Part shown: piece by piece, positions 4,597-28,108 of the stretch
Position numbering within the stretch: the first letter of the stretch is position 1
Layout of the letters: each line of letters opens with the position of its first letter
Source of the DNA: a virus
Lineage: Duplodnaviria > Heunggongvirae > Uroviricota > Caudoviricetes
Virus record (IMG/VR): IMGVR_UViG_2534682170_000012
DNA: 28,108 nt
Direction: 5' to 3' (one strand)
The notes under the pieces: generated by a model
Told to the model about the DNA's origin: nothing
What the model saw: only the letters and a program-made list of their open reading frames with translations
Databases searched by the model: none
Translations under genes and position numbers: made by a program

Positions 4597-4986
4597 ATGA
4601 TTGACGCTCATGACTTCACAAGATGGGTGCGCACACAGGACACCCGTCTGGCTCCCGTTCTTCAGGGATTATTTGATCTCTACATCCGTAGTCGTGACAA
4701 CAGAGCACGCACTACAAAACCGGAGAATGCAGACACCCTTTATTTCACAGTAGACGACTGCTACCGCGTGGACTTAACACCACACGGGCTGGCGTTGCGC
4801 TGCCTGACACCGCATGGCGAATCACTGCTGGCGTATTACGACTCCCCGACCTCCGTATTTGCGGCAATGCTGGCGCATCACACTGCTGGCGGGTGTGCCT
4901 CGCTGAGTGAATACACCGCTGAATTTAACCGCCTTTCCACCCTCTTCTCGCAGGAGTGGCAGCGCGTGACGGGATACCAGCCATGA
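4597..4986 (+). CDS. Hypothetical early protein immediately upstream of, and coupled to, the replication gene
   Basis: 129 aa ORF; its stop overlaps the gpA start (ATGA at 4983-4986). Confidence 0.45.
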   Translation: MIDAHDFTRWVRTQDTRLAPVLQGLFDLYIRSRDNRARTTKPENADTLYFTVDDCYRVDLTPHGLALRCLTPHGESLLAYYDSPTSVFAAMLAHHTAGGCASLSEYTAEFNRLSTLFSQEWQRVTGYQP

Positions 4987-7748
4987 GTGAGTTTGCATGG
5001 AGCTGGAATGAACCACGGCCAGCCATTGATCCGGACAGATTTACGGAGCGCAGGCAGGAAACTGAAACCGAGCTGCAACGCGCCATCCGTTACTACCTTG
5101 AGGCGGACAAAAAGGCCCGTAAAGAACAGGAAGCGAAGGAGGAAGCCTTTTTCGCACAATCCACCGTGGGTAAAAAACTCATGGCATCCCTTGAGGAAGC
5201 CGGACAGCGTGAAAAGCTGGCACAAAGCATCATCAGCAAGCGTCAGGCAACAGAACAAGACCCGGTGGCCCGTGCTTTTGCCACACTGAAGGTGCTTCCC
5301 GTTTATCTGCGTGAACCTCTGAGCCGCCACCTCTCTTTCCTGCGCAAAAAACAGGAATCCGATCGTCAGAAAGGCAAAAAGAGCTGGCAGGCTGAACGCT
5401 ACGCGCGCGGAACCCTGCGCAAAATATTCGTACGTCTGGACCGCACCGACAGCCGTTGGCTGACACCGGGTTATCGGTCCCTTGCCGGACGTGAACGCCT
5501 GGACGATTTGCTTTCCCTGCCGCAACTCAACAAACACCAGATACAGACGCTGGCCACCATGACGGCGGCGATGTTCAGCAGCACCTTCGAAAAACTCTGC
5601 GATGGTTTTGGCGCGACCGATGGCGAGCTGACCATGGATGTAACGCTGAAGGCGTATCAGATGCTGGCCCGCATGGCGTTACACTTGCACGCCATGCCTC
5701 CGCATTATGACGCACTGACAACAGACAAAGACCGGAGGAACGAACCGGACACAGAACTGCTGCCGGGCGCAATCCTTCGCCTGACCTGTGCGGAATGGTG
5801 GAAACGCAAACTGTGGCTGTTACGTTGCGAGTGGAGAGAAGAACAACTCCGCGCCGCCTGTCTGGTTTCCAGAAAAACATCGCCCTATTTGAGCCAGGAC
5901 GCGTTAAGCGAGTTTCGCGCACAGCGCGAGAAAACACGCGATTTCCTGAAAAGTTTCATGCTGGAAAACGAAGACGGGTTCACGATTGATCTCGAGACGG
6001 TGTATTACGCGGGAGTAAGTAACCCGGTTCACCGTAAGGCAGAAATGATGGCCACCATGAAGGGGCTGGAACTTCTGGCCGAAGCCCGTGGCGACAAAGC
6101 GGTGTTTCTGACTGTCACCTGCCCGTCAAAATACCACGCCACAACAGAGAACGGTCATCCGAATCCCAAATGGAACGGGGCCACCATGCGCGACTCCAGC
6201 GATTACCTGGTTAACACGTTTTTTGCGGCGGTCCGCAAAAAACTGAACCGCGACGGTCTTCGCTGGTATGGCATCCGCACGGTGGAGCCTCACCATGACG
6301 GCACCGTGCACTGGCATATGATGGTCTTTGCTCATCCGGAAGAAATCGACAGCATCGTGGCCATCACCCGCGATATTGCCATTCAGGAAGACCGCCACGA
6401 GCTGGGCAATGATATTACTCCGCGCTTTAAGGCGGAGTATGTCGACGGCTCAAAAGGCACACCAACCAGCTATATCGCGACCTACATCGGAAAGAACCTG
6501 GACAGCCGCGCCGTGGATGGCATCGACCCGAAAACGGGCAAGCCACGCGTTGACCACGAAACCGGAAAATCAATGGCCGAGAGTGTGGAGCGCGCCATCG
6601 GCTGGGCGCGCCTTCATCGGGTCCGCCAGTTCCAGTTCTTTGGCATCCCCTCCCGTCAGGTGTGGCGTGAACTGCGCCGCCTTGCCAGCCAGATGGCACG
6701 CAACCCGGAAGGCCCGCAACGACTGAAAGATGACGCAATGGATGCGGTACTCGCTGCCGCCGATGCCGGGTGTTTTGCCACCTACATTGAAAAACAGGGC
6801 GGCGTACTTGTTCCACGCAAAGACTACCTGATTCGCACCGCCTACGACCTCGCAGATGAGCTGAATGATTACGGCGAACAGAGCGTACAGATTTACGGGA
6901 TCTGGTCACCACTCATCGGGGAATCCTCCCGTGTGTGCACGCATCCGGATAACTGGAAACTGGTAAGACGTAAACCGGAAACGGAAGACAGCGCCCGCGA
7001 AAATGGTTTTGACCTTCAGGGCGGCCCTGCCGCCCCTTGGACTCGTGGCAATAACTGTCCCCGTGTACAGGAAACGGACAACAACGGGACAGAACAGCCG
7101 GAAGAACGGCCAGCACCGTGGCCGCGGCTTCCTGAAGGCGTTGACGTGAATGAATGGATGCGCTCACTGAAACGGCACGAACGCCGGGCACTGATGCGTT
7201 CGCTGCGTGACAAACAGGCAAAAAACAGCAGTGATGAAATGCAGAACTGGACACAGAGCCGCAAACAGCCACAGCCTTTGCCTGATAACCACGAGTTACT
7301 CGCTAAAGAATGGCGGGAGTCTGCTGAATCTCTCGGCCTGCATATCGGTGAACAGCAGATGCAGCACCTGTTACGAGGCGGCAGTCTGTACGTTGGCGGC
7401 AGCATCATTGCACCGCAGGGATTTGAAATTGTACGCAAACAGGATACCCGCCCGGACAGCCGAATCACGCAGCTCTGGCAACGCCTGAGTCGTAATCACG
7501 GCGTAAGCAGCACGGAGATCCGCCATAACCCGGTCGCCAGCTATCTGGAACAACTAGAGGCATCAGACCCTGAAGCCGCCGCACGCCTGGCATCCACACT
7601 TCAGCAAGACCAGAACACCATGAAAACACCCGTTACCGTACTTTCTGACATGCTGCGCGCCATCCGCGACGCAGAGCACGCACAGAGAATCAGTGAAACC
7701 ACTAAACATGCTCGCAAAAAAATCAGTTTATTGCATCGAACACGATAG
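4983..7748 (+). CDS. A: Rolling-circle replication initiation endonuclease, P2 gpA family
   Basis: VEPHHDGTVHWHMMVF (HUH-type motif) and paired tyrosines YIATYIGKN (Tyr codons at 6471-6473 and 6483-6485) match the remembered P2 gpA active region. Start taken as the ATG at 4983 rather than the ORF-track start at 4956. Confidence 0.88.
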   Translation: MSEFAWSWNEPRPAIDPDRFTERRQETETELQRAIRYYLEADKKARKEQEAKEEAFFAQSTVGKKLMASLEEAGQREKLAQSIISKRQATEQDPVARAFATLKVLPVYLREPLSRHLSFLRKKQESDRQKGKKSWQAERYARGTLRKIFVRLDRTDSRWLTPGYRSLAGRERLDDLLSLPQLNKHQIQTLATMTAAMFSSTFEKLCDGFGATDGELTMDVTLKAYQMLARMALHLHAMPPHYDALTTDKDRRNEPDTELLPGAILRLTCAEWWKRKLWLLRCEWREEQLRAACLVSRKTSPYLSQDALSEFRAQREKTRDFLKSFMLENEDGFTIDLETVYYAGVSNPVHRKAEMMATMKGLELLAEARGDKAVFLTVTCPSKYHATTENGHPNPKWNGATMRDSSDYLVNTFFAAVRKKLNRDGLRWYGIRTVEPHHDGTVHWHMMVFAHPEEIDSIVAITRDIAIQEDRHELGNDITPRFKAEYVDGSKGTPTSYIATYIGKNLDSRAVDGIDPKTGKPRVDHETGKSMAESVERAIGWARLHRVRQFQFFGIPSRQVWRELRRLASQMARNPEGPQRLKDDAMDAVLAAADAGCFATYIEKQGGVLVPRKDYLIRTAYDLADELNDYGEQSVQIYGIWSPLIGESSRVCTHPDNWKLVRRKPETEDSARENGFDLQGGPAAPWTRGNNCPRVQETDNNGTEQPEERPAPWPRLPEGVDVNEWMRSLKRHERRALMRSLRDKQAKNSSDEMQNWTQSRKQPQPLPDNHELLAKEWRESAESLGLHIGEQQMQHLLRGGSLYVGGSIIAPQGFEIVRKQDTRPDSRITQLWQRLSRNHGVSSTEIRHNPVASYLEQLEASDPEAAARLASTLQQDQNTMKTPVTVLSDMLRAIRDAEHAQRISETTKHARKKISLLHRTR

Positions 7749-7793
7749 AAATATAGAGCTAAGGCCGCCCTAGGAATAAGGAGGCCTTGAAAA

Positions 7794-8603
7794 TCAACCT
7801 ATCTTCTTATGAAGTAAAATTAATTTCTGTATTAATTTGGAATGAAACATTGATATATCAGAAATTCTTATTTCATTAGGCGAGTCTATATGATTGGAAA
7901 CTTCTTCCTCCAAGGAGTCACAAATACTTTCTAGATTTTCAATATCTGCATTTAATTCTGGAAAACTATTAAACAAATATAATGAATCCCGTAACTCTCC
8001 TAGTTTTGGTAAAAGAGTATTACTGAATACACTAAGAAACTCCTCTTCTGATAATGCCATGGAGTTTTTAAAACTTTGCACAACATCGAATGCCAACCCA
8101 TTAATTTTAGGCATAATTACTTCTCTTACCCAATACCCTTCATTAATAGCTTCTTTACGTTCTTTTCTATGTTGAACACAAGGAATAACAAAGGATGAAA
8201 CTAAAGCAAATAAAGAGATGCCAATAGAAATCCACTCTGGACCATTTTCCGGAACCTTTACAATATTATATATATCATAGGAATTTGGAACATCTTTGAA
8301 ATAATTAGCAAATAAATCTTTTTTGTTATCCCTTGCCAGAGATAACTTATGAAAGGTGTCGTTTGCCTTTTCACAAAACATCAAGCCATCATTCGGGTTT
8401 CCGGATAACAAAAACGGTGATGATATACCACTAAGTCCTGAATCGGAAATATAAAAAGGCGTGTTTGGATAAAGTGATTCATTACATTCAATGTTTTCTT
8501 TATTGGAAAAATCTGTCACAGAGCAAGCTGCGGGGAATATAAAAAAAATGACAGACAGCGCTGTCATTTTGATTTGAAAAATATTTTTAAAAGAAGGGAA
8601 CAT
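7794..8603 (-). CDS. Cargo gene 3: membrane protein with signal-peptide/lipobox-like N-terminus and one internal TM helix
   Basis: 269 aa, AT-rich. N-terminal hydrophobic segment ends in PAAC; internal hydrophobic helix WISIGISLFALVSSFVIPCV. Start 8603 overlaps gene 2; an alternative ATG is at 8565-8567. Confidence 0.5.
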   Translation of the reverse strand: MFPSFKNIFQIKMTALSVIFFIFPAACSVTDFSNKENIECNESLYPNTPFYISDSGLSGISSPFLLSGNPNDGLMFCEKANDTFHKLSLARDNKKDLFANYFKDVPNSYDIYNIVKVPENGPEWISIGISLFALVSSFVIPCVQHRKERKEAINEGYWVREVIMPKINGLAFDVVQSFKNSMALSEEEFLSVFSNTLLPKLGELRDSLYLFNSFPELNADIENLESICDSLEEEVSNHIDSPNEIRISDISMFHSKLIQKLILLHKKIG

Positions 8604-8931
8604 TTTTATGTAAGCCTCTCCTTACAGCTCTATCTAATTCAGAAAGCATACCTTCTTTATATTCACGACCATCAAGTACAGTGCGACTATAAAATTCGCT
8701 AGGCGAAGAAAATTTCGGCAAAACCGTTTCAAGCATACCTAGAAAGTATGAGCTTGATACAACAATTCCCTTGGGGATCAATAGATATAATCTATCATTA
8801 CTGGTTGTGCAAAATTTCCCTATATTAAAGTAATCATAGGCCTGGCGCCCATTAGAACGTCCAGCAAAAAGTTTCTTGTTACTATCTTTTACTAACTTAT
8901 TGAAATCTATGGTGATGTCAGCCATTTTCAT
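8587..8931 (-). CDS. Cargo gene 2: small STAS-like protein (anti-sigma-factor-antagonist-like)
   Basis: 114 aa; Ser-rich VVSSSYFLG (8737-8763) resembles the phospho-acceptor motif of SpoIIAA/RsbV-type STAS domains, and the size matches. GAGGA RBS; starts 10 nt after the gene 1 stop. Confidence 0.45.
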   Translation of the reverse strand: MKMADITIDFNKLVKDSNKKLFAGRSNGRQAYDYFNIGKFCTTSNDRLYLLIPKGIVVSSSYFLGMLETVLPKFSSPSEFYSRTVLDGREYKEGMLSELDRAVRRGLHKNVPFF

Positions 8932-8941
8932 GTACCTGTCC

Positions 8942-10321
8942 TCAAGTTCGCTGGGTGGCGTTTTCTGGTAGAGGAAAACGAATATTGATCATAACTCCAG
9001 GAAATCGAGCATCCTTCATACGCTTAAGATAGTTGCGATCCGGTTCAGATTCAAGCCCTACATCATTAAAAGGGTAAGTAAAAATGTCACTTTCCTCGTC
9101 ATTAACCAACCTTTGCTTTAATTTATATGATCCATCAAAGTTAATATGAGTACTACCAGATATTAAAGTCATTTTTATCCCACCTTTAATATCTCTTCCC
9201 ATTTTTTTAAGATTATCATGCATATCTTGAAATAACTTCAATAATTCAATTGTTCCGGTGCCAGAACTGTCAGTTTCTTTCTCGTTTTTACAACTCACCC
9301 GCCCTTGCAAGGCCGCTACTGTTGTTAATCCTTCCTTAAACATACCCTTTTTCTTAATATGCTTATTTATGTATGGATTAACTTGTTGACTTAATGAAAA
9401 ATGATCCTCAGGTAAATTATCAAAAGTTTCGCTGATAGTTTTCCCAAAATTGAAAACAGCCAACTCACATATGGGGTTTCGTACGTTATTATTAACAAAA
9501 CCTCTCAAATACCAGCGTGGGCGTTGCTCTAACCCACAATGCCGCTCCGCATTATCAAGGAGTTCCCCCATGCAGGAAGTTAAATGCTTTTCTGCCTCAT
9601 GTACAAGTTTTAAATTATGATCATTTAAGCATTCGTTTATGTATGCGGTAAATTTTTCAGCAGTGACATTTTTTCTGTCATGGGCAAAGGCAGAAGCATT
9701 CTCCTTTCCGATACTATCAGCAGAGAAGATTCGTTTCTTCGGATTCGCTTTTTTCGATGCTTCAGTAGAGTCCAGAACTTTACCTGGTGCAGCATTACTA
9801 ATCTCTTTTACAAGCCCGACATCCCTGATAATTTCAAGATACTGTTCATCTTTAGGGTAGATACCATTAATCTGAATCATCGTATCTTTGAAATTTATAT
9901 TACTTTGCCTTGCTGCTGTAAGAGCAACACCTAATAGACACTCAAGACCAAGACAGTGTTTTTTGTTTTTCTTGTAATCAAAAATATATGATTTCCATTT
10001 ACCTCTTGCAATTAATTTTGTGGCTGCACTAATAAATAGCAGAGATTTCTCTGGATTGTCATATAAGTCAAAATATTTAGGTATTAATATCTTCTCTGCG
10101 TCACGACGAAGAATTGATGAGTCATACTCTTTTATAATCGATATATTTTCAATGAACGTAGCGACTTGGTTTTGGACAGGAGTTGTTTCATCGGAAAAAC
10201 GAAGACTACCATTTTTCTCTTGCGCAGGCTTTTTTTTCTTAGCTCTCTCAACGCTACGAAGAAATCGCAACCATCCACGTAAAAAGGTTCTTTTAGAATC
10301 TTCTTTATTGATTTTTTTCAT
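8942..10321 (-). CDS. Cargo gene 1: large protein with GHKL/anti-sigma-kinase-like ATPase motifs
   Basis: ORF-track frame 8942-10417 begins at a TTG; the first ATG is at 10319-10321 (MKKINKED...). ELLDNAERHCG (9539-9565) resembles the N-box of SpoIIAB/RsbW-type Bergerat ATPases; Gly-rich DSSGTGT (9239-9271) lies downstream. Strongly AT-rich. Confidence 0.5.
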   Translation of the reverse strand: MKKINKEDSKRTFLRGWLRFLRSVERAKKKKPAQEKNGSLRFSDETTPVQNQVATFIENISIIKEYDSSILRRDAEKILIPKYFDLYDNPEKSLLFISAATKLIARGKWKSYIFDYKKNKKHCLGLECLLGVALTAARQSNINFKDTMIQINGIYPKDEQYLEIIRDVGLVKEISNAAPGKVLDSTEASKKANPKKRIFSADSIGKENASAFAHDRKNVTAEKFTAYINECLNDHNLKLVHEAEKHLTSCMGELLDNAERHCGLEQRPRWYLRGFVNNNVRNPICELAVFNFGKTISETFDNLPEDHFSLSQQVNPYINKHIKKKGMFKEGLTTVAALQGRVSCKNEKETDSSGTGTIELLKLFQDMHDNLKKMGRDIKGGIKMTLISGSTHINFDGSYKLKQRLVNDEESDIFTYPFNDVGLESEPDRNYLKRMKDARFPGVMINIRFPLPENATQRT

Positions 10322-10400
10322 TTCCAAATGTTCCTGCAAAGTTAACGTAGCCCACAAGGCGCTAAGTATACTTTCTGCTATATTTTTTTCACTATACAAA

Positions 10401-10428
10401 TGCACAATAGTGCACAAATTTGCACAAT
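10401..10428. repeat. Three direct TGCACAA repeats at 10-bp phasing upstream of the cargo operon; a fourth copy at 10493-10499
   Basis: TGCACAA at 10401, 10411 and 10421, read directly. Possible operator or packaging-recognition element. Confidence 0.3.
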
Positions 10429-10851: not shown

Positions 10852-11898
10852 TCAGGATGTGGGCTGGGTGTCTAACAGTGCGTAAGGGTTAAAGCGGATC
10901 ACCTCTTCGCCAAGCCAGTCATTGATGTGCTTCATGGCCTCCATGACGGGCATCAGCTCGTTAATTGCGTAAACCCGCGCGGCCTTCTCCACATCACCAA
11001 ACGCACTTTTTTCGCCCGGCATCGCCCCCATCAGTTGCGGCGGAACGCGGTGCGCAGCCAGCACATCATCACGGGATGCCGCCTTAACATTCATGAACTC
11101 ATCTTTTGCGGTGATCTGCTGGAACGGCAAAATTTGCACCCCTTCTTTGCCCCCGTTGGGCGCATGAATGAGCACGTTTTTAAATGCACCACCACCACGC
11201 GCACCCTGTAACGTTTCTTTCAGGGAGTCCATGCTTTCGCGGTTTACCTGCGCTGCACCGATGTAGATGATGCACCCGGCGTGGGATCCGTTGTCGTAGT
11301 ACAGTTTTCTGAACATGTCCGCCGAATGAGAAAGGCTGGCCGAGAGTAATGCGCCAAGATATTCCGGCATGCCGTAGATTTCCTGGTTAATATCCGGATT
11401 CATCAGGTGGCACACTTTGCCAGGGCGAAACTGGAACGCGTCCTTGCCATCCTGCACATACCACCATGATTCAAGATCGCTTCCGCGTCGCATGTATTTC
11501 GCCAGGGCGTGCCGTAATTTAAGCGGTTCGCCGAGCATATTGCTCCGAAGCTCAAGGAATGCGTTACCGAACACAAACCAGTCCAGCGCCAGCGCCGAGA
11601 AATCCTGCCGGGAAAGCAGCGGGTGCGGGATGTAGCAACCGAGTAATACATTGCGCTTAAAGTAAAGCGCAGACTGATGCCAGGACGTTTGCCGGGCGGC
11701 TCTTGCCAGACCGTACCAGTCCACCGGGGTTTCATACCACCGCCCGTTATCAGCACAGTACATATTGTCCAGCAGGTCATGCCCGGTCAGGCGATAAGGA
11801 CCATCAAATGTGAATGCACTGAGCGATGATTCTTTCCTGAGCGCATCAGCGAGATCAATGCGTGAACTCATGCGCACTTTTTTATTTTTTCTGCTCAT
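10852..11898 (-). CDS. Q: Portal protein, P2 gpQ family
   Basis: 348 aa; size, position and orientation (convergent with the cargo operon, upstream partner of the terminase) as in P2. Confidence 0.85.
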   Translation of the reverse strand: MSRKNKKVRMSSRIDLADALRKESSLSAFTFDGPYRLTGHDLLDNMYCADNGRWYETPVDWYGLARAARQTSWHQSALYFKRNVLLGCYIPHPLLSRQDFSALALDWFVFGNAFLELRSNMLGEPLKLRHALAKYMRRGSDLESWWYVQDGKDAFQFRPGKVCHLMNPDINQEIYGMPEYLGALLSASLSHSADMFRKLYYDNGSHAGCIIYIGAAQVNRESMDSLKETLQGARGGGAFKNVLIHAPNGGKEGVQILPFQQITAKDEFMNVKAASRDDVLAAHRVPPQLMGAMPGEKSAFGDVEKAARVYAINELMPVMEAMKHINDWLGEEVIRFNPYALLDTQPTS

Positions 11899-24227: not shown

Positions 24228-24755
24228 ATGATGCACTTAAAGAACATAAAAGCGGGTAATGCTAAAACACTGGAACAGTATGAGTTAACAAAGAAGCACG
24301 GAGTCATCTGGCTTTACTCTGAGGACGAAAAAAACTGGTATGAGGAAGTGAAAAACTTTCAGCCAGACACCATAAAGATTGTTTACGATAAAAATCAGAT
24401 TATAGTCGCTATCACCAGAGATGCTTCAACGCTTAATCCTGAAGGTTTTAGCGTTGTTGAGGTTCCTGATATTACCTCCAACCGACGTGCTGACGACTCA
24501 GGTAAATGGATGTTTAAGGATGGTGCTGTGGTTAAACGGATTTATACGACAGATGAGCAGCAACAACAGGCAGAATCACAAAAGGCCGCGTTACTTTCCG
24601 AAGCAGAAAGCGTTATTCAGCCACTGGAACGCGCCGTCAGGCTGAATATGGCGACGGATGAGGAACGCGCACGACTGGAGTCATGGGAACGCTACAGTGT
24701 TCTGGTCAGCCGTGTGGATACGGCAAATCCTGAATGGCCACAAAAGCCTGAATAA
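24228..24755 (+). CDS. G: Tail fibre assembly chaperone (P2 gpG / Tfa family)
   Basis: 175 aa directly after H; N-terminal region matches the inverted paralogue at 24784-25284. Confidence 0.85.
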
Positions 24756-24760
24756 AAATT

Positions 24761-24780
24761 AAGGCCCGCTATCGGGCCTT
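24761..24780. terminator. Bidirectional hairpin terminator between the convergent fibre-chaperone genes
   Basis: Perfect inverted repeat AAGGCCCG-ctat-CGGGCCTT flanked by A/T-rich runs. Confidence 0.5.
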
Positions 24781-24783
24781 GTC

Positions 24784-25284
24784 TCATTCAGGTTGTTCGG
24801 GAAACGTTACTGGCAGGCTGGAAGTGTCTGTAGATTCGACTTTCTGCGCAAAGAGCATCCACTCTGTTAATTTTTGTTTATTCTCGTCGGAAATGATGCC
24901 CAGCCGTAGCTGTGAGTCCCATAGCTGGGTTTTATCCCTGACGAGCTGTAGCAGGCTTTGCTTTTCATTTTCCGCCTGCTGCCTCTGCTCTTCCTCGGTA
25001 TAAGTTCGCTTTACCACTACGCCATCTTTGAACATCCATTTACCCGAAATGTCAGCACGGCGATTTGCTGTAATATCAGGTAATTCAACGACGCTTGCGC
25101 CTTCCGGATTAATTGCTGAAACATCCTTTTCAATACAAATAATAACGCCGTTATGGCCATAGACCATTTTCAAAGTGTCTGGCTGGAAATTCTTTTGTTC
25201 CTCATACCAGTTTTTTCCATCATCTGAATAAAGCCATTTGATGTTAAATTGCTTTGTTAGCTGGTATTGCTCTTTCGTTCTCAA
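24784..25284 (-). CDS. Alternative tail fibre assembly chaperone (Tfa'), inverted orientation
   Basis: 166 aa; clearly paralogous to G ([31 protein letters not shown]). Confidence 0.8.
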
Positions 25285-25339
25285 AATCGGTGGAGCTGCA
25301 TGACAAAGTCATCGGGCATTATCTGAACATAAAACACTA

Positions 25340-26311
25340 TCAATAAGTTGGAGTCATTACCCCCGCGTTATACCACGTCCCATTAATGCAATACTGAATT
25401 GGCCTTGCCTGAGTTGTATCAATTAATTCATCACGGTTTCCGTTAACTGAACCCGTAACGACATAACCTGACCTGTCAGACCAGCCGGGGCCTTTCCATG
25501 TCTGAACAGATGACAGACCGCCAAGGCGAATACCTGTAATAAACCTTGAGTTACATTCTGCCTGCGTATATGCACCAACATCCCCCGCAGAGGGTTTGCG
25601 TGTTGTGGTGTAAAACTCTGACCAGTTAGCTTCAAAGCCATAACCATCACGCGCTGAACGATAAAAAATACCGCCGTTCCTGTAATTCACGCGGAACTGT
25701 ACAGCAGGGCAACTCCCCGCATTCATATTGAAGTGGAGGATTAATGTCGATGCACCACTGATATCTGCATCATAAACACCGCTATTCCAGTTCCAGCCAA
25801 CAGCTTTATCATTTGCGACCCTGCGTCCTGTTTGCCCTAAAGCAAATGCAGGCTGCTGGTTTTTCGTGTTGTAGTCTCGTCGCCAGCCAGGAGCGTAAGC
25901 ATCACCATGATTAATATAAGTGAATTGAGCGTTAGTAATTCCGCCACCGCTGGACGTGCTCGGCGTAGTAACGCGTATGGTCATTGCGCCGCGAGTGCCA
26001 ATAACTTCCACCACAGCACCTGCAAGACAAATATTTCCGCAACCTGTATCTGTAATAACCTTATTATTTGCATAAGCCCATGAGCCTTTGCACATCCAGT
26101 AAGGATGGTTAAATGCCCCCTGACTCTCCAGCCACGAAATAAATTGCGCAGTTGTCCAGACCTGACTATCGCCACCAATATTCAGCCATGCGCTATATGC
26201 GCGGCAGGCACCAATGTTTTTGGTGAAGGTATCTTTTCCCGGAATATCTGCGCCGTTCTGGTTTTTCTGTAATGCGCCAGAAGCCTGATTTACCGTTTCC
26301 TGTAAACCGAG
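25340..26311 (-). CDS. Alternative tail-fibre C-terminal segment, start-less; would be fused in frame to H after inversion
   Basis: Hand translation of the minus strand from the right gix site gives LGLQETVN, then a novel segment ending [15 protein letters not shown]. The codon just upstream is a stop, so it has no own start. The ORF-track ATG at 26095 is internal. Confidence 0.7.
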
Positions 26312-26776: not shown

Positions 26777-28108
26777 TTATTTTGAGTGAGTTATCACCTT
26801 GTTTTTTCCGGTTCTTTTGGCTTGATATAACGCTTTATCGGCATTGACTAACATTTCAGATGGACTGAGATTATTCTCTTTTGAAGTAAAGCAACCAATA
26901 CTGACAGTTATTTTCTCAGGTCCATGCGATAATAATTTTTCCGAGCATTGCTCTTCAATGTTTTTTCTGATTCGCTCTGCAATTGATAGCAAGAGCTTTT
27001 GAGTATTACCTTTAATGATAATACCGAACTCCTCACCGCCTAAGCGCCCTAATATATCCTCTTTCCTGATGGATTTTTTTATTATTCTGGTAACCATTAC
27101 TATGACTTGATCACCCATATGATGCCCCCATTTGTCATTGATGCTTTTGAAATTGTCAATATCTAACATTATTACTGAGAAATCATGGTGTTTTGATATA
27201 TTCTTCAATGAGTCAATAAAGTATCTTCTATTGTATGTATTCGTTAGTGGATCATGAATTGCCATATGATTAGCATGATTTAATTTCCTGAAAACATAAT
27301 ACATGAGTGTTGAAATGATATAAATCATTGATATCAATTCAAGAAATTTTGTCATGTACCATGCAGGATGGGATTTATCAATAAAATACAATAAAATTAG
27401 ATTATTGCATACTGACACTATACTAATAAGTATTATACACAACCATATTTTTGAGTAATTACGTATGCTGATGCATGAGCTGATAAGTAATACAAGCCAA
27501 AATACTGATATTATTTTGGTGTACACGATATTCCACGTCGGCAAATGACGATTCAGCGAGTATTGTATAATATTAAGACTATATTTTATATTGTCACTGC
27601 TTAGATTTTTTGCTACAAACGGAGTAATAAAAAGAATTAATATTGACAAAACAACAATTATTATGTTTCTTTTATCTTCTAAAACACTTTTGTTTTTAAC
27701 ATTGGTGGAATAAACAGCCAGAAAGATTATAGATATAAAGCTGAACTGACGGAATAGATAATATATTGCGATATCATTTGATTTCTGATAGATTGTAGAT
27801 AAATCGTTACCTAACGGAGATAAAGAAATAATAGCCACTTCTAATAAATAATACGTGTTGCTCAAAAACGCGAATGAAAGAATTAAGAGATAACTTTGTC
27901 TCTGATTAGAAACATAGTAAAGCAATAGAAAAATAAAAATCATCAGGTTTATGAAAAAAAGCCCAATAATGAAAACACTATAACTTATTTGTGTTGTTTG
28001 TGTTATGTATATTCCATTATTTGCATGCAGTAACAAAAATATAATAGAGATGCATGAAAATAAAAAGATGAAGATTTTTATTTTTATAGGTACCTGGTTG
28101 ATAATCAT
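26777..28108 (-). CDS. Membrane-bound diguanylate cyclase: multi-pass N-terminal membrane domain plus GGDEF domain (YcdT/DgcT-like architecture)
   Basis: C-terminal GGDEF domain with HDPLTNTYNRRYF, RLGGEEFGIII (GGEEF active-site motif) and DKALYQAKRTGKNKV. N-terminal half is highly hydrophobic and AT-rich. The ORF start codon is the last 3 nt of the window, so the true start may lie beyond it. Confidence 0.8.
   Translation of the reverse strand: MIINQVPIKIKIFIFLFSCISIIFLLLHANNGIYITQTTQISYSVFIIGLFFINLMIFIFLLLYYVSNQRQSYLLILSFAFLSNTYYLLEVAIISLSPLGNDLSTIYQKSNDIAIYYLFRQFSFISIIFLAVYSTNVKNKSVLEDKRNIIIVVLSILILFITPFVAKNLSSDNIKYSLNIIQYSLNRHLPTWNIVYTKIISVFWLVLLISSCISIRNYSKIWLCIILISIVSVCNNLILLYFIDKSHPAWYMTKFLELISMIYIISTLMYYVFRKLNHANHMAIHDPLTNTYNRRYFIDSLKNISKHHDFSVIMLDIDNFKSINDKWGHHMGDQVIVMVTRIIKKSIRKEDILGRLGGEEFGIIIKGNTQKLLLSIAERIRKNIEEQCSEKLLSHGPEKITVSIGCFTSKENNLSPSEMLVNADKALYQAKRTGKNKVITHSK

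Follow-up and report, generated by a model that had tools for sequence, protein, structure and literature searches.

Two described bacterial systems frame the locus analyzed here, a three-gene cassette carried by an Escherichia coli P2-like prophage in a 28,108-nucleotide stretch of DNA (IMG/VR record IMGVR_UViG_2534682170_000012), hereafter referred to as the window. In one of these systems, CapK, a helix–turn–helix (HTH)–STAS–GHKL protein, is switched on by single-stranded DNA (ssDNA) and phosphorylates CapS, a STAS–winged HTH (wHTH) protein, on S54 in its second helix (Chambers et al., EMBO J 2026, PMC13373217). CapS is a repressor, and CapK/CapS control CBASS, Bub, and other operons (PMC13373217). 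The other system, VapKSC, is a three-gene operon encoding VapK (STAS–GHKL), the antitoxin VapS, and the PIN toxin VapC, and it confers protection against phage Bas42 (PMC13373217). VapS has 116 residues, made up of a STAS domain plus a short region at the C terminus, and carries a conserved serine, S48; the S48E variant no longer neutralizes VapC and no longer copurifies with it (PMC13373217). Activation by ssDNA requires an aromatic residue, which is W68 in CapK and F54 in VapK (PMC13373217). The cassette in the window most resembles VapKSC. It encodes a STAS–GHKL kinase-like protein (gene 1), a small protein with a serine-rich motif (gene 2), and a membrane protein (gene 3), and the best reading, by analogy with the two systems above, is that gene 2 is a STAS-like substrate that sits beside a SpoIIAB-like kinase and would control an effector through its phosphorylation.

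Gene 2 was singled out in an initial annotation of the window as a 114-residue open reading frame (ORF) with a VVSSSYFLG motif. The coordinates given there for both proved exact, and the ORF is under selection. The relevant features are as follows:

8587–8931, minus strand: gene 2, 114 residues (112-residue form from 8925), DUF4325-like/STAS-like putative kinase substrate, based on conservation, the structural model, and the DUF4325 link.
8737–8763, minus strand: VVSSSYFLG, residues V57–G65, covering the end of a strand, a serine cap, and the first turns of helix 2, based on conservation and the model.
8587–8603, minus strand: 17-nucleotide overlap of the gene 2 stop and the gene 3 start, from the ORF calls; likely translational coupling.

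A chance ORF is excluded because homologs exist at two levels: 41 homolog clusters at E ≤ 2e-14, with 42–99% identity and mostly from Enterobacterales plus Aeromonas, and, from a search of 1.8 billion representatives, 122 remote homologs (E ≤ 1e-3). The ATG at 8931 is preceded at 7 nucleotides by a Shine–Dalgarno sequence (GAGGA) and lies 10 nucleotides past the stop of gene 1. RefSeq places the start at the second ATG, 8925, which gives 112 residues, and the MxM start is retained by most homologs. The overlap between genes 2 and 3 is likewise present in the Morganella and Aeromonas loci described later.

Conservation was counted in two sets, one of 38 close homologs and one of 123 diverged homologs (the broad family). 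VVSSSYFLG is the most conserved stretch of the protein. Residues S59, S60, S61, Y62, and G65 are invariant among the close homologs, and in the broad family position 61 is S in 118 sequences, T in three, Y in one, and N in one, meaning that S or T is found in 121/123 and a hydroxyl-bearing residue (S/T/Y) in 122/123; G65 is retained in 121/123. The second-most conserved element is a loop ahead of helix 1, G24-R25-x-N27-G28 (8848–8862), which is invariant among the close homologs and of which G24, R/K25, and G28 are kept in 122, 108, and 122 of the 123 diverged sequences, respectively. The third, on the surface like the loop, is a C-terminal helix (residues 97–108; 8608–8643) with E98, R101, A102, and R105 invariant in the close set, followed by a GLHKNxPFF tail. 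By analogy with the C-terminal region of VapS, this helix and tail are a candidate effector-binding region (PMC13373217).

The AlphaFold2 model of gene 2 is confident, with a predicted local distance difference test (pLDDT) score of 89.4 and a predicted template modeling (pTM) score of 0.82. Its elements run in the order strand, strand, Gly loop, helix 1, strand, Ser cap, helix 2, short helix, strand, and helix, which in the model is compatible with a minimal STAS domain. S59–S61 lie at the N terminus of the second main helix (residues 60–67), with S61 in its first turn, and this is where SpoIIAA, CapS, and VapS carry their serines. Gene 2 is, in short, a small α/β protein with a near-invariant Ser/Thr starting its second main helix, and the earlier suggestion that the motif resembles the phospho-acceptor region of STAS domains is supported in this respect. 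Based on the analogy with these proteins, S61 is a candidate phospho-acceptor.

The family relationships of gene 2 point in the same direction, at longer range. When the 123 members of the broad family are scanned, a single Pfam family recurs, DUF4325 (PF14213; “STAS-like domain of unknown function”), with 13 matches at E ≤ 0.01, four at E ≤ 1e-5, and a best value of 3.7e-8; one member, P0139, passes the gathering score (27.4 vs 23 bits). The query and its 37 close homologs all fall below detection by the same model. DUF4325 and gene 2 share Gly/Arg ahead of helix 1, followed by a strand, a Ser, an aromatic residue, and helix 2, whereas the R-to-G loop ahead of helix 1 is shorter in gene 2 than in VapS. 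VapS is a clear DUF4325 member (E 2.7e-17), and as judged from sequence the relation of gene 2 to VapS would be transitive only, via DUF4325; the broad gene 2 profile aligns S61 with S48 of VapS, weakly, at 7.3 bits. The best match of gene 2 in a profile search of the PDB is the anti-sigma antagonist TM1081, at a nonsignificant E of 0.36, and this weak alignment puts SSSYFLG against IDSFSLG, in register. PDB sequence-profile searches with the gene 2 close-family, gene 2 broad-family, and gene 1 profiles returned nothing significant. In a fold search, the similarity of gene 2 to phospho-accepting STAS proteins was weak, and VapS (PDB 9Z7O) and CapS (PDB 9Z71) were absent among the matches listed in any of the fold and PDB-sequence searches. 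Comparison of the gene 2 family with the STAS domain of gene 1 by hhalign showed no similarity. The Pfam STAS and DUF4325 models also fail to detect CapS, a protein with a solved STAS fold, and CapS shows HTH_24. In our view, gene 2 is quite likely related to the DUF4325/STAS-like group, though in a divergent form; it is a demonstrable member of neither the Pfam STAS nor the Pfam DUF4325 family. Of the proposal in the initial annotation that gene 2 is a STAS-domain anti-sigma-factor antagonist, the STAS-like character thus survives through the remote DUF4325 link, and the assignment as a canonical antagonist does not.

Gene 2 homologs also occur as orphans on two metagenome contigs, L002 (5148–5468; SRR11277006) and L015 (3927–4247; ERR11042402), which are related, phage-like, and rich in small codirectional genes. 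Both orphans have 106 residues, show 42% identity, and stand alone, with neither a gene 1 nor a gene 3 homolog. They retain KxLFAGRENG and IVVSSSYYFG and lack the C-terminal GLHKNEPFF tail. One of the two contigs also has a Pyr_excise (denV-like) gene and an R2K gene. These orphans could be phage-borne decoy or anti-defense copies of gene 2.

The gene immediately upstream of gene 2 encodes the kinase-like protein:

8942–10321, minus strand: gene 1, 459 residues, with a basic N-terminal helix, a canonical STAS domain, and a SpoIIAB-like GHKL kinase/ATPase domain.
9707–10144, minus strand: STAS domain of gene 1, about residues 60–205, from secondary structure.
8945–9676, minus strand: GHKL domain of gene 1, about residues 216–459, from secondary structure.

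The top structural match of gene 1 is SpoIIAB. The N box reads E253-x3-N257-x3-H261 (9539–9565), the G1 box N291-F-G293, and the G2 box G354-x-G356-T, and the ATP-binding residues, including the catalytic Glu and Asn of the N box, are invariant among 53 homologs. Using hhalign, the N and G1 boxes come into register with those of VapK, at a nonsignificant score. Searches of gene 1 against Pfam, NCBIfam, and PADLOC gave no match, a Pfam scan of all 53 homologs gave a single weak HATPase_c_2 match, and no effector-like domain was detected in gene 1. The initial annotation had placed a kinase-like gene directly upstream of gene 2, which is correct; however, the canonical STAS domain of the locus is already held by gene 1 itself. 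In a hand alignment, Leu124 of gene 1 occupies the position of the canonical phospho-Ser of STAS domains, so that the internal STAS domain, if this alignment is right, is not itself the substrate. The mechanically called gene 1 ORF runs 32 codons further upstream, to a TTG at 10417 (10322–10417), which would give 491 residues. This longer form is probably not real because the start used by the homologs and by RefSeq is the ATG at 10321 and because a promoter-like site lies inside the extension.

Residues 6–28 of gene 1 (10238–10306) form a strongly basic, amphipathic N-terminal helix (KRTFLRGWLRFLRSVERAKKKK), which is followed by a low-confidence linker. VapK lacks this helix, and CapK has its HTH at this position; the helix could serve to bind nucleic acid or a membrane.

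The third gene encodes the membrane protein:

7794–8603, minus strand: gene 3, 269 residues, putative effector, from the ORF and an alignment of 11 homologs with hydropathy.

In the 11-homolog alignment, the N terminus of gene 3 is signal/lipoprotein-like, with a lipobox-like sequence. The part that follows, presumably periplasmic, is highly variable and is absent or very short in Erwinia and Rosenbergiella. It leads to a conserved transmembrane (TM) helix (residues 125–143; 8175–8231), a basic stretch, and, on the cytoplasmic side, a conserved helical domain of about 125 residues with the motif (E/D)x(Y/F)W(V/L/M)R(E/K)V. Because the TM helix and the cytoplasmic domain are always kept, the conserved core appears to be a membrane anchor plus a domain that gene 2 could reach. 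Gene 3 has no match in Pfam (PIN included) or NCBIfam; in PADLOC-DB v2.0.0, where genes 1 and 2 have no match, gene 3 gave a chance-level match only (E 0.031).

Synteny was assessed with hidden Markov models of the three proteins, using 13 loci that have a gene 1 homolog. The order gene 1–gene 2–gene 3 on one strand was found in 13/13, in Escherichia, Morganella, Aeromonas, Proteus, Yersinia, Idiomarina, Rosenbergiella, Erwinia, Pseudoalteromonas, Variovorax, Achromobacter, and a metagenome. The settings of these loci are as follows:

Escherichia: E. coli P2 hotspot.
Yersinia aleksiciae: P2-like prophage, again between the portal gene and the GPA gene.
Morganella: satellite-like island with a D5-type primase, an integrase, and AlpA.
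Proteus: between an integrase gene and a tail gene.
Rosenbergiella: contig with a Rep3 initiator (plasmid-like).
Erwinia: near a CAP12/Pycsar TIR gene and a transposase gene.
Achromobacter: adjoining phage tail genes.
Metagenome contig: adjoining an integrase gene.
Aeromonas, Variovorax, Idiomarina, and Pseudoalteromonas: chromosomal islets.

A cassette homolog is also found on a Pantoea plasmid, and relatives of the cassette occur in beta- and gamma-proteobacteria. As an obligate unit of three genes carried by mobile elements, the cassette has a distribution typical of defense.

The resemblance to VapKSC extends from gene order to sequence motifs. Both are three-gene operons that run from a kinase through a small STAS-like protein to an effector or putative effector; in both, the first protein joins a STAS domain to a SpoIIAB-like GHKL domain, has the E-x3-N-x3-H pattern in its N box, and resembles its counterpart in the G1, G2, and C-terminal motifs; and in both, the small protein has about 115 residues, begins helix 2 with a conserved Ser/Thr, and has a C-terminal helix that is conserved as well. 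A phosphatase is encoded by neither system, and both are associated with defense loci. The differences lie in each of the three genes. Gene 3 encodes a membrane protein, whereas VapC is a PIN nuclease, and since the third gene product is a membrane protein with no PIN match, the cassette is not a member of VapKSC. Gene 1 has 459 residues compared with 302 in VapK, with insertions and the basic N-terminal helix as additions, its G1 box has N291 in place of Asp, and F54 of VapK, which contacts ssDNA, has no clear equivalent in the hand alignment. VapS matches DUF4325, whereas gene 2 itself does not match it at all.

CapK/CapS share with the cassette a STAS–GHKL kinase gene immediately upstream of the gene for a STAS-like substrate, and in that system the phosphorylation of S54 of CapS has been shown biochemically. 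Unlike CapK, gene 1 has no predicted HTH, one long N-terminal helix taking its place, and unlike CapS, gene 2 is a single domain lacking a wHTH. Since neither gene 1 nor gene 2 has an HTH or wHTH, they are unlikely to repress transcription by binding DNA, and by analogy the output of the cassette would be a protein–protein switch rather than transcription. The SpoIIAB/SpoIIAA and RsbW/RsbV pairs of Bacillus resemble the cassette in that a GHKL kinase gene of the SpoIIAB/RsbW type adjoins gene 2 and in the Ser/Thr at the N terminus of helix 2. They differ in that the cassette has no sigma factor and no PP2C phosphatase, its third gene encodes a membrane protein, its STAS domain is fused to the kinase, and gene 2 is not a canonical STAS protein by Pfam, nor clearly one by fold search. 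The classic partner-switching arrangement put forward in the initial annotation is therefore not supported for this locus, and a kinase-gated toxin–antitoxin system would be a better analogy than anti-sigma partner switching.

The cassette has been cataloged before. Table S5B of Rousset et al. (2022) lists, as system 19 of the P2 hotspot, an arrangement labeled “HATPase_c” and “DUF4325” with 155 occurrences and the remark “1 TM in protein 3” (PMC9122126). Proteins 1 and 2 of system 19 match the window, and protein 3 differs at two residues, which identifies it as the same cassette. That study apparently only cataloged the cassette and did not evaluate it phenotypically. The domain labels have thus been known since the 2022 supplementary table (PMC9122126); what is new here is its assignment to the VapKSC/CapKS family, as a variant with a putative membrane effector, and the observation that all three genes are strictly conserved across proteobacteria. 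Identity with the three-gene anti-P1 system with “no predicted domain” of the same study was considered and rejected since the table lists the cassette separately; its absence from the table of evaluated systems and the lack of a PADLOC match further rule this out. None of the P4 systems newly reported in PMC13586616 (Bandua, Aernus, Toga, Reve, Crouga, and Hailong) has this composition.

Tables S1/S5 of Rousset et al. also contain a second arrangement labeled “HATPase_c” and “DUF4325,” number 69, with nine occurrences in the P4 satellite hotspot, and several P2-hotspot arrangements place a DUF4325 protein beside hypothetical proteins and DinI (PMC9122126). STAS-like/kinase modules seem to recur in P2/P4 hotspots.

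Starting from the features observed directly (the gene 1 domains, the conservation of gene 2, the remote DUF4325 link, the three-gene synteny, and the hotspot/mobile location), we propose that the cassette is a mobile antiphage module of the VapKSC kind. Gene 1 would act as a sensor kinase like CapK and VapK, with its STAS domain fused to a GHKL domain of the SpoIIAB type. In the resting cell, gene 2 would be bound to the cytoplasmic domain of gene 3 and keep it inactive. An infection cue would activate gene 1, leading to phosphorylation of gene 2 on S61 at the start of helix 2; phosphorylated gene 2 would then let go, and gene 3, as an inner-membrane effector, would damage the membrane and abort the infection. 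The phosphorylation of S61, the interaction between genes 2 and 3, the toxicity of gene 3, the trigger, and the antiphage phenotype are all proposed by analogy with VapKSC and CapKS, in which phosphorylation-controlled release of an effector has experimental precedent (PMC13373217). For the chain as a whole, from latch through S61 phosphorylation to release of gene 3, we see the chances as evenly balanced. A more far-reaching version would make the cassette a new class of kinase-gated abortive infection, with a phosphorylatable STAS-like antitoxin that restrains a hitherto unknown, envelope-anchored membrane toxin, a trigger other than ssDNA, and the orphans of L002 and L015 serving some lytic phages as nonreleasable decoy antitoxins; taken as a package, this is a speculative reading that we think is probably wrong in one part or another.

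Several results weigh against the proposed mechanism. Gene 2 has no match to Pfam at E ≤ 1, and so none to the STAS or DUF4325 models, and no direct NCBIfam or PADLOC match either. Comparisons of VapS, VapK, CapS, and CapK with the gene 1 and gene 2 families by hhalign, hmmsearch, and jackhmmer gave either alignments that were in register but not significant or no alignment. The G1 box of gene 1 has an invariant Asn (N291; 9449–9451) in VFNFGKT where VapK has Asp in VVDFGVG, which, as far as the sequence goes, hints at atypical nucleotide recognition. In the hand alignment, the stretch of gene 1 that corresponds to THCRF54L of VapK reads KHCLGL, with no obvious aromatic counterpart. Gene 3 resembles no known toxin, and neither the cassette sequences nor the term DUF4325 appear in the table of evaluated systems of Rousset et al. 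(PMC9122126).

Some of these points would fit an arrangement in which gene 2 is an adaptor or ligand-binding subunit that is not phosphorylated, and gene 1 is an ATP-driven switch that sequesters and releases it without phosphotransfer, as in anti-sigma sequestration. In that case, the role of the GRxNG loop and of the SSS helix cap would be to form an anion or nucleotide site, or a plain protein interface. The two most conserved elements of gene 2 are indeed Gly-rich or Ser-rich helix N termini, which are typical anion-binding geometries; the G1 Asn in place of the usual Asp may make the nucleotide chemistry of gene 1 atypical; and the fold match to phospho-accepting STAS proteins is weak. 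However, a hydroxyl at position 61 in all but one of 123 homologs is what is expected of an acceptor, the gene 1 family shows no variation at the two catalytic N-box residues, Glu and Asn, and the closest characterized relatives use phosphorylation or a serine that is sensitive to a phosphomimetic substitution (PMC13373217). We regard the adaptor arrangement as unlikely, though worth keeping in view. A similarity of gene 2 to STAS/DUF4325 that is only superficial, with a separate α/β fold and a Ser motif that serves purely for helix capping, is distinctly improbable. DUF4325 is the sole recurrent Pfam match of the remote homologs, four of them at E ≤ 1e-5, and Rousset et al. independently labeled the cassette DUF4325 (PMC9122126); the best, albeit nonsignificant, PDB sequence match is an anti-sigma antagonist, with the motif aligned in register; a SpoIIAB-like kinase is always encoded next to gene 2; and CapS, with its solved STAS fold, is equally missed by the Pfam STAS and DUF4325 models.

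The direction of the signal could also be reversed, with gene 3 as an envelope sensor of adsorption, DNA entry, or envelope stress, gene 2 as a relay, and gene 1 as the output, or the cassette could be a prophage conversion or superinfection-exclusion module instead of one for abortive infection. The lipobox-like N terminus and the highly variable, presumably periplasmic part of gene 3, as would be seen under diversifying selection, agree with a sensor, and the extra basic N-terminal helix and insertions that gene 1 has and VapK lacks likewise fit this reading. Yet the variable part is dispensed with, or nearly so, in Erwinia and Rosenbergiella, which retain the TM helix and cytoplasmic domain, GHKL–STAS proteins are the sensors in the characterized relatives (PMC13373217), and no effector-like domain is found in gene 1, all of which make this reading improbable. 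A literal partner switch, with gene 1 as an anti-sigma factor acting on a host or phage sigma factor, gene 2 as its antagonist, and transcription as the controlled process, would account for SpoIIAB being the top structural match of gene 1 and for the size of gene 2, which is that of SpoIIAA or RsbV. It is hard to reconcile with other data: no gene for a sigma factor or PP2C phosphatase is found in the 13 cassettes, the invariant third gene encodes a membrane protein, and cargo of prophages, satellites, and plasmids across distant hosts does not sit well with a host-specific sigma partner. We consider it highly improbable. The reading that we prefer remains that of a STAS-like substrate through which a kinase would control a membrane effector.

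The surroundings of the cassette in the window are those of a P2-like prophage:

4956–7748, plus strand: P2-type replication endonuclease gpA (gene A), left border of the hotspot, from the RefSeq annotation of the identical locus.
7759–7773, minus strand: terminator-like hairpin directly past the gene 3 stop, from a scan for terminator-like sites.
10365–10392, minus strand: promoter-like site upstream of the ATG at 10321, weak (9/12 matches).
10852–11898, minus strand: P2-type portal gpQ (gene Q), right border of the hotspot, from the RefSeq annotation and matches to portal genes of P2-like phages.

The interval between gpA and gpQ, in which the three genes lie, is the cos-proximal hotspot of P2-like phages, occupied by old/tin in P2 and by many defense systems in other strains (PMC9122126). 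At about 35%, the G+C content of the cassette is lower than that of its flanks (about 55%). Strain WS1933D has the same locus at 100% identity, the full cassette is present in 23/5,426 complete E. coli genomes, and the RefSeq products of genes 1, 2, and 3 are all hypothetical proteins. A tblastn search with gene 2 against 50,697 phage records gave no match, and in a megablast search of the same records with the locus only the portal flank was matched. Terminator-like sites are enriched (nine found vs 2.6 expected), whereas the count of promoter-like sites in the region is not above that of shuffled controls.

Two further regions of the window deserve mention. At its end, just past the tail-fiber region, a 443-residue ORF (26777–28108, minus strand; 29–35% G+C) encodes a protein with a multi-TM N-terminal region and a GGEEF motif of the GGDEF diguanylate cyclase type. 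WS1933D lacks this ORF at the corresponding place and has a frameshifted recombinase gene and tail genes instead; the ORF may be a second cargo gene or host DNA. The segment at 24228–26095 contains two opposed ORFs that resemble tail-fiber-assembly genes (24228–24755, plus strand; 24784–25284, minus strand) and an inverted ORF (25340–26095, minus strand) with a C terminus, INGTWYN, like that of the tail fiber gene. This segment looks like an invertible host-range segment, and in WS1933D the frameshifted recombinase gene adjoins the equivalent region.

With 155 occurrences, the cassette is the 19th commonest occupant of the E. coli P2 hotspot (Rousset et al. 2022, PMC9122126), and if the proposed mechanism is true, a set of fairly common “hypothetical proteins” would become a testable defense system. 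Gene 3 would represent a new family of membrane effectors, and it would provide a second, independent effector for asking whether phosphorylation of the DUF4325 serine is a general release mechanism. The combination of a STAS–GHKL kinase and a STAS-like substrate would then be a general, portable “sensor plus latch,” with the latch fitted to effectors as varied as the transcription factor of CapKS, the PIN nuclease of VapKSC, and the membrane protein of the cassette described here.

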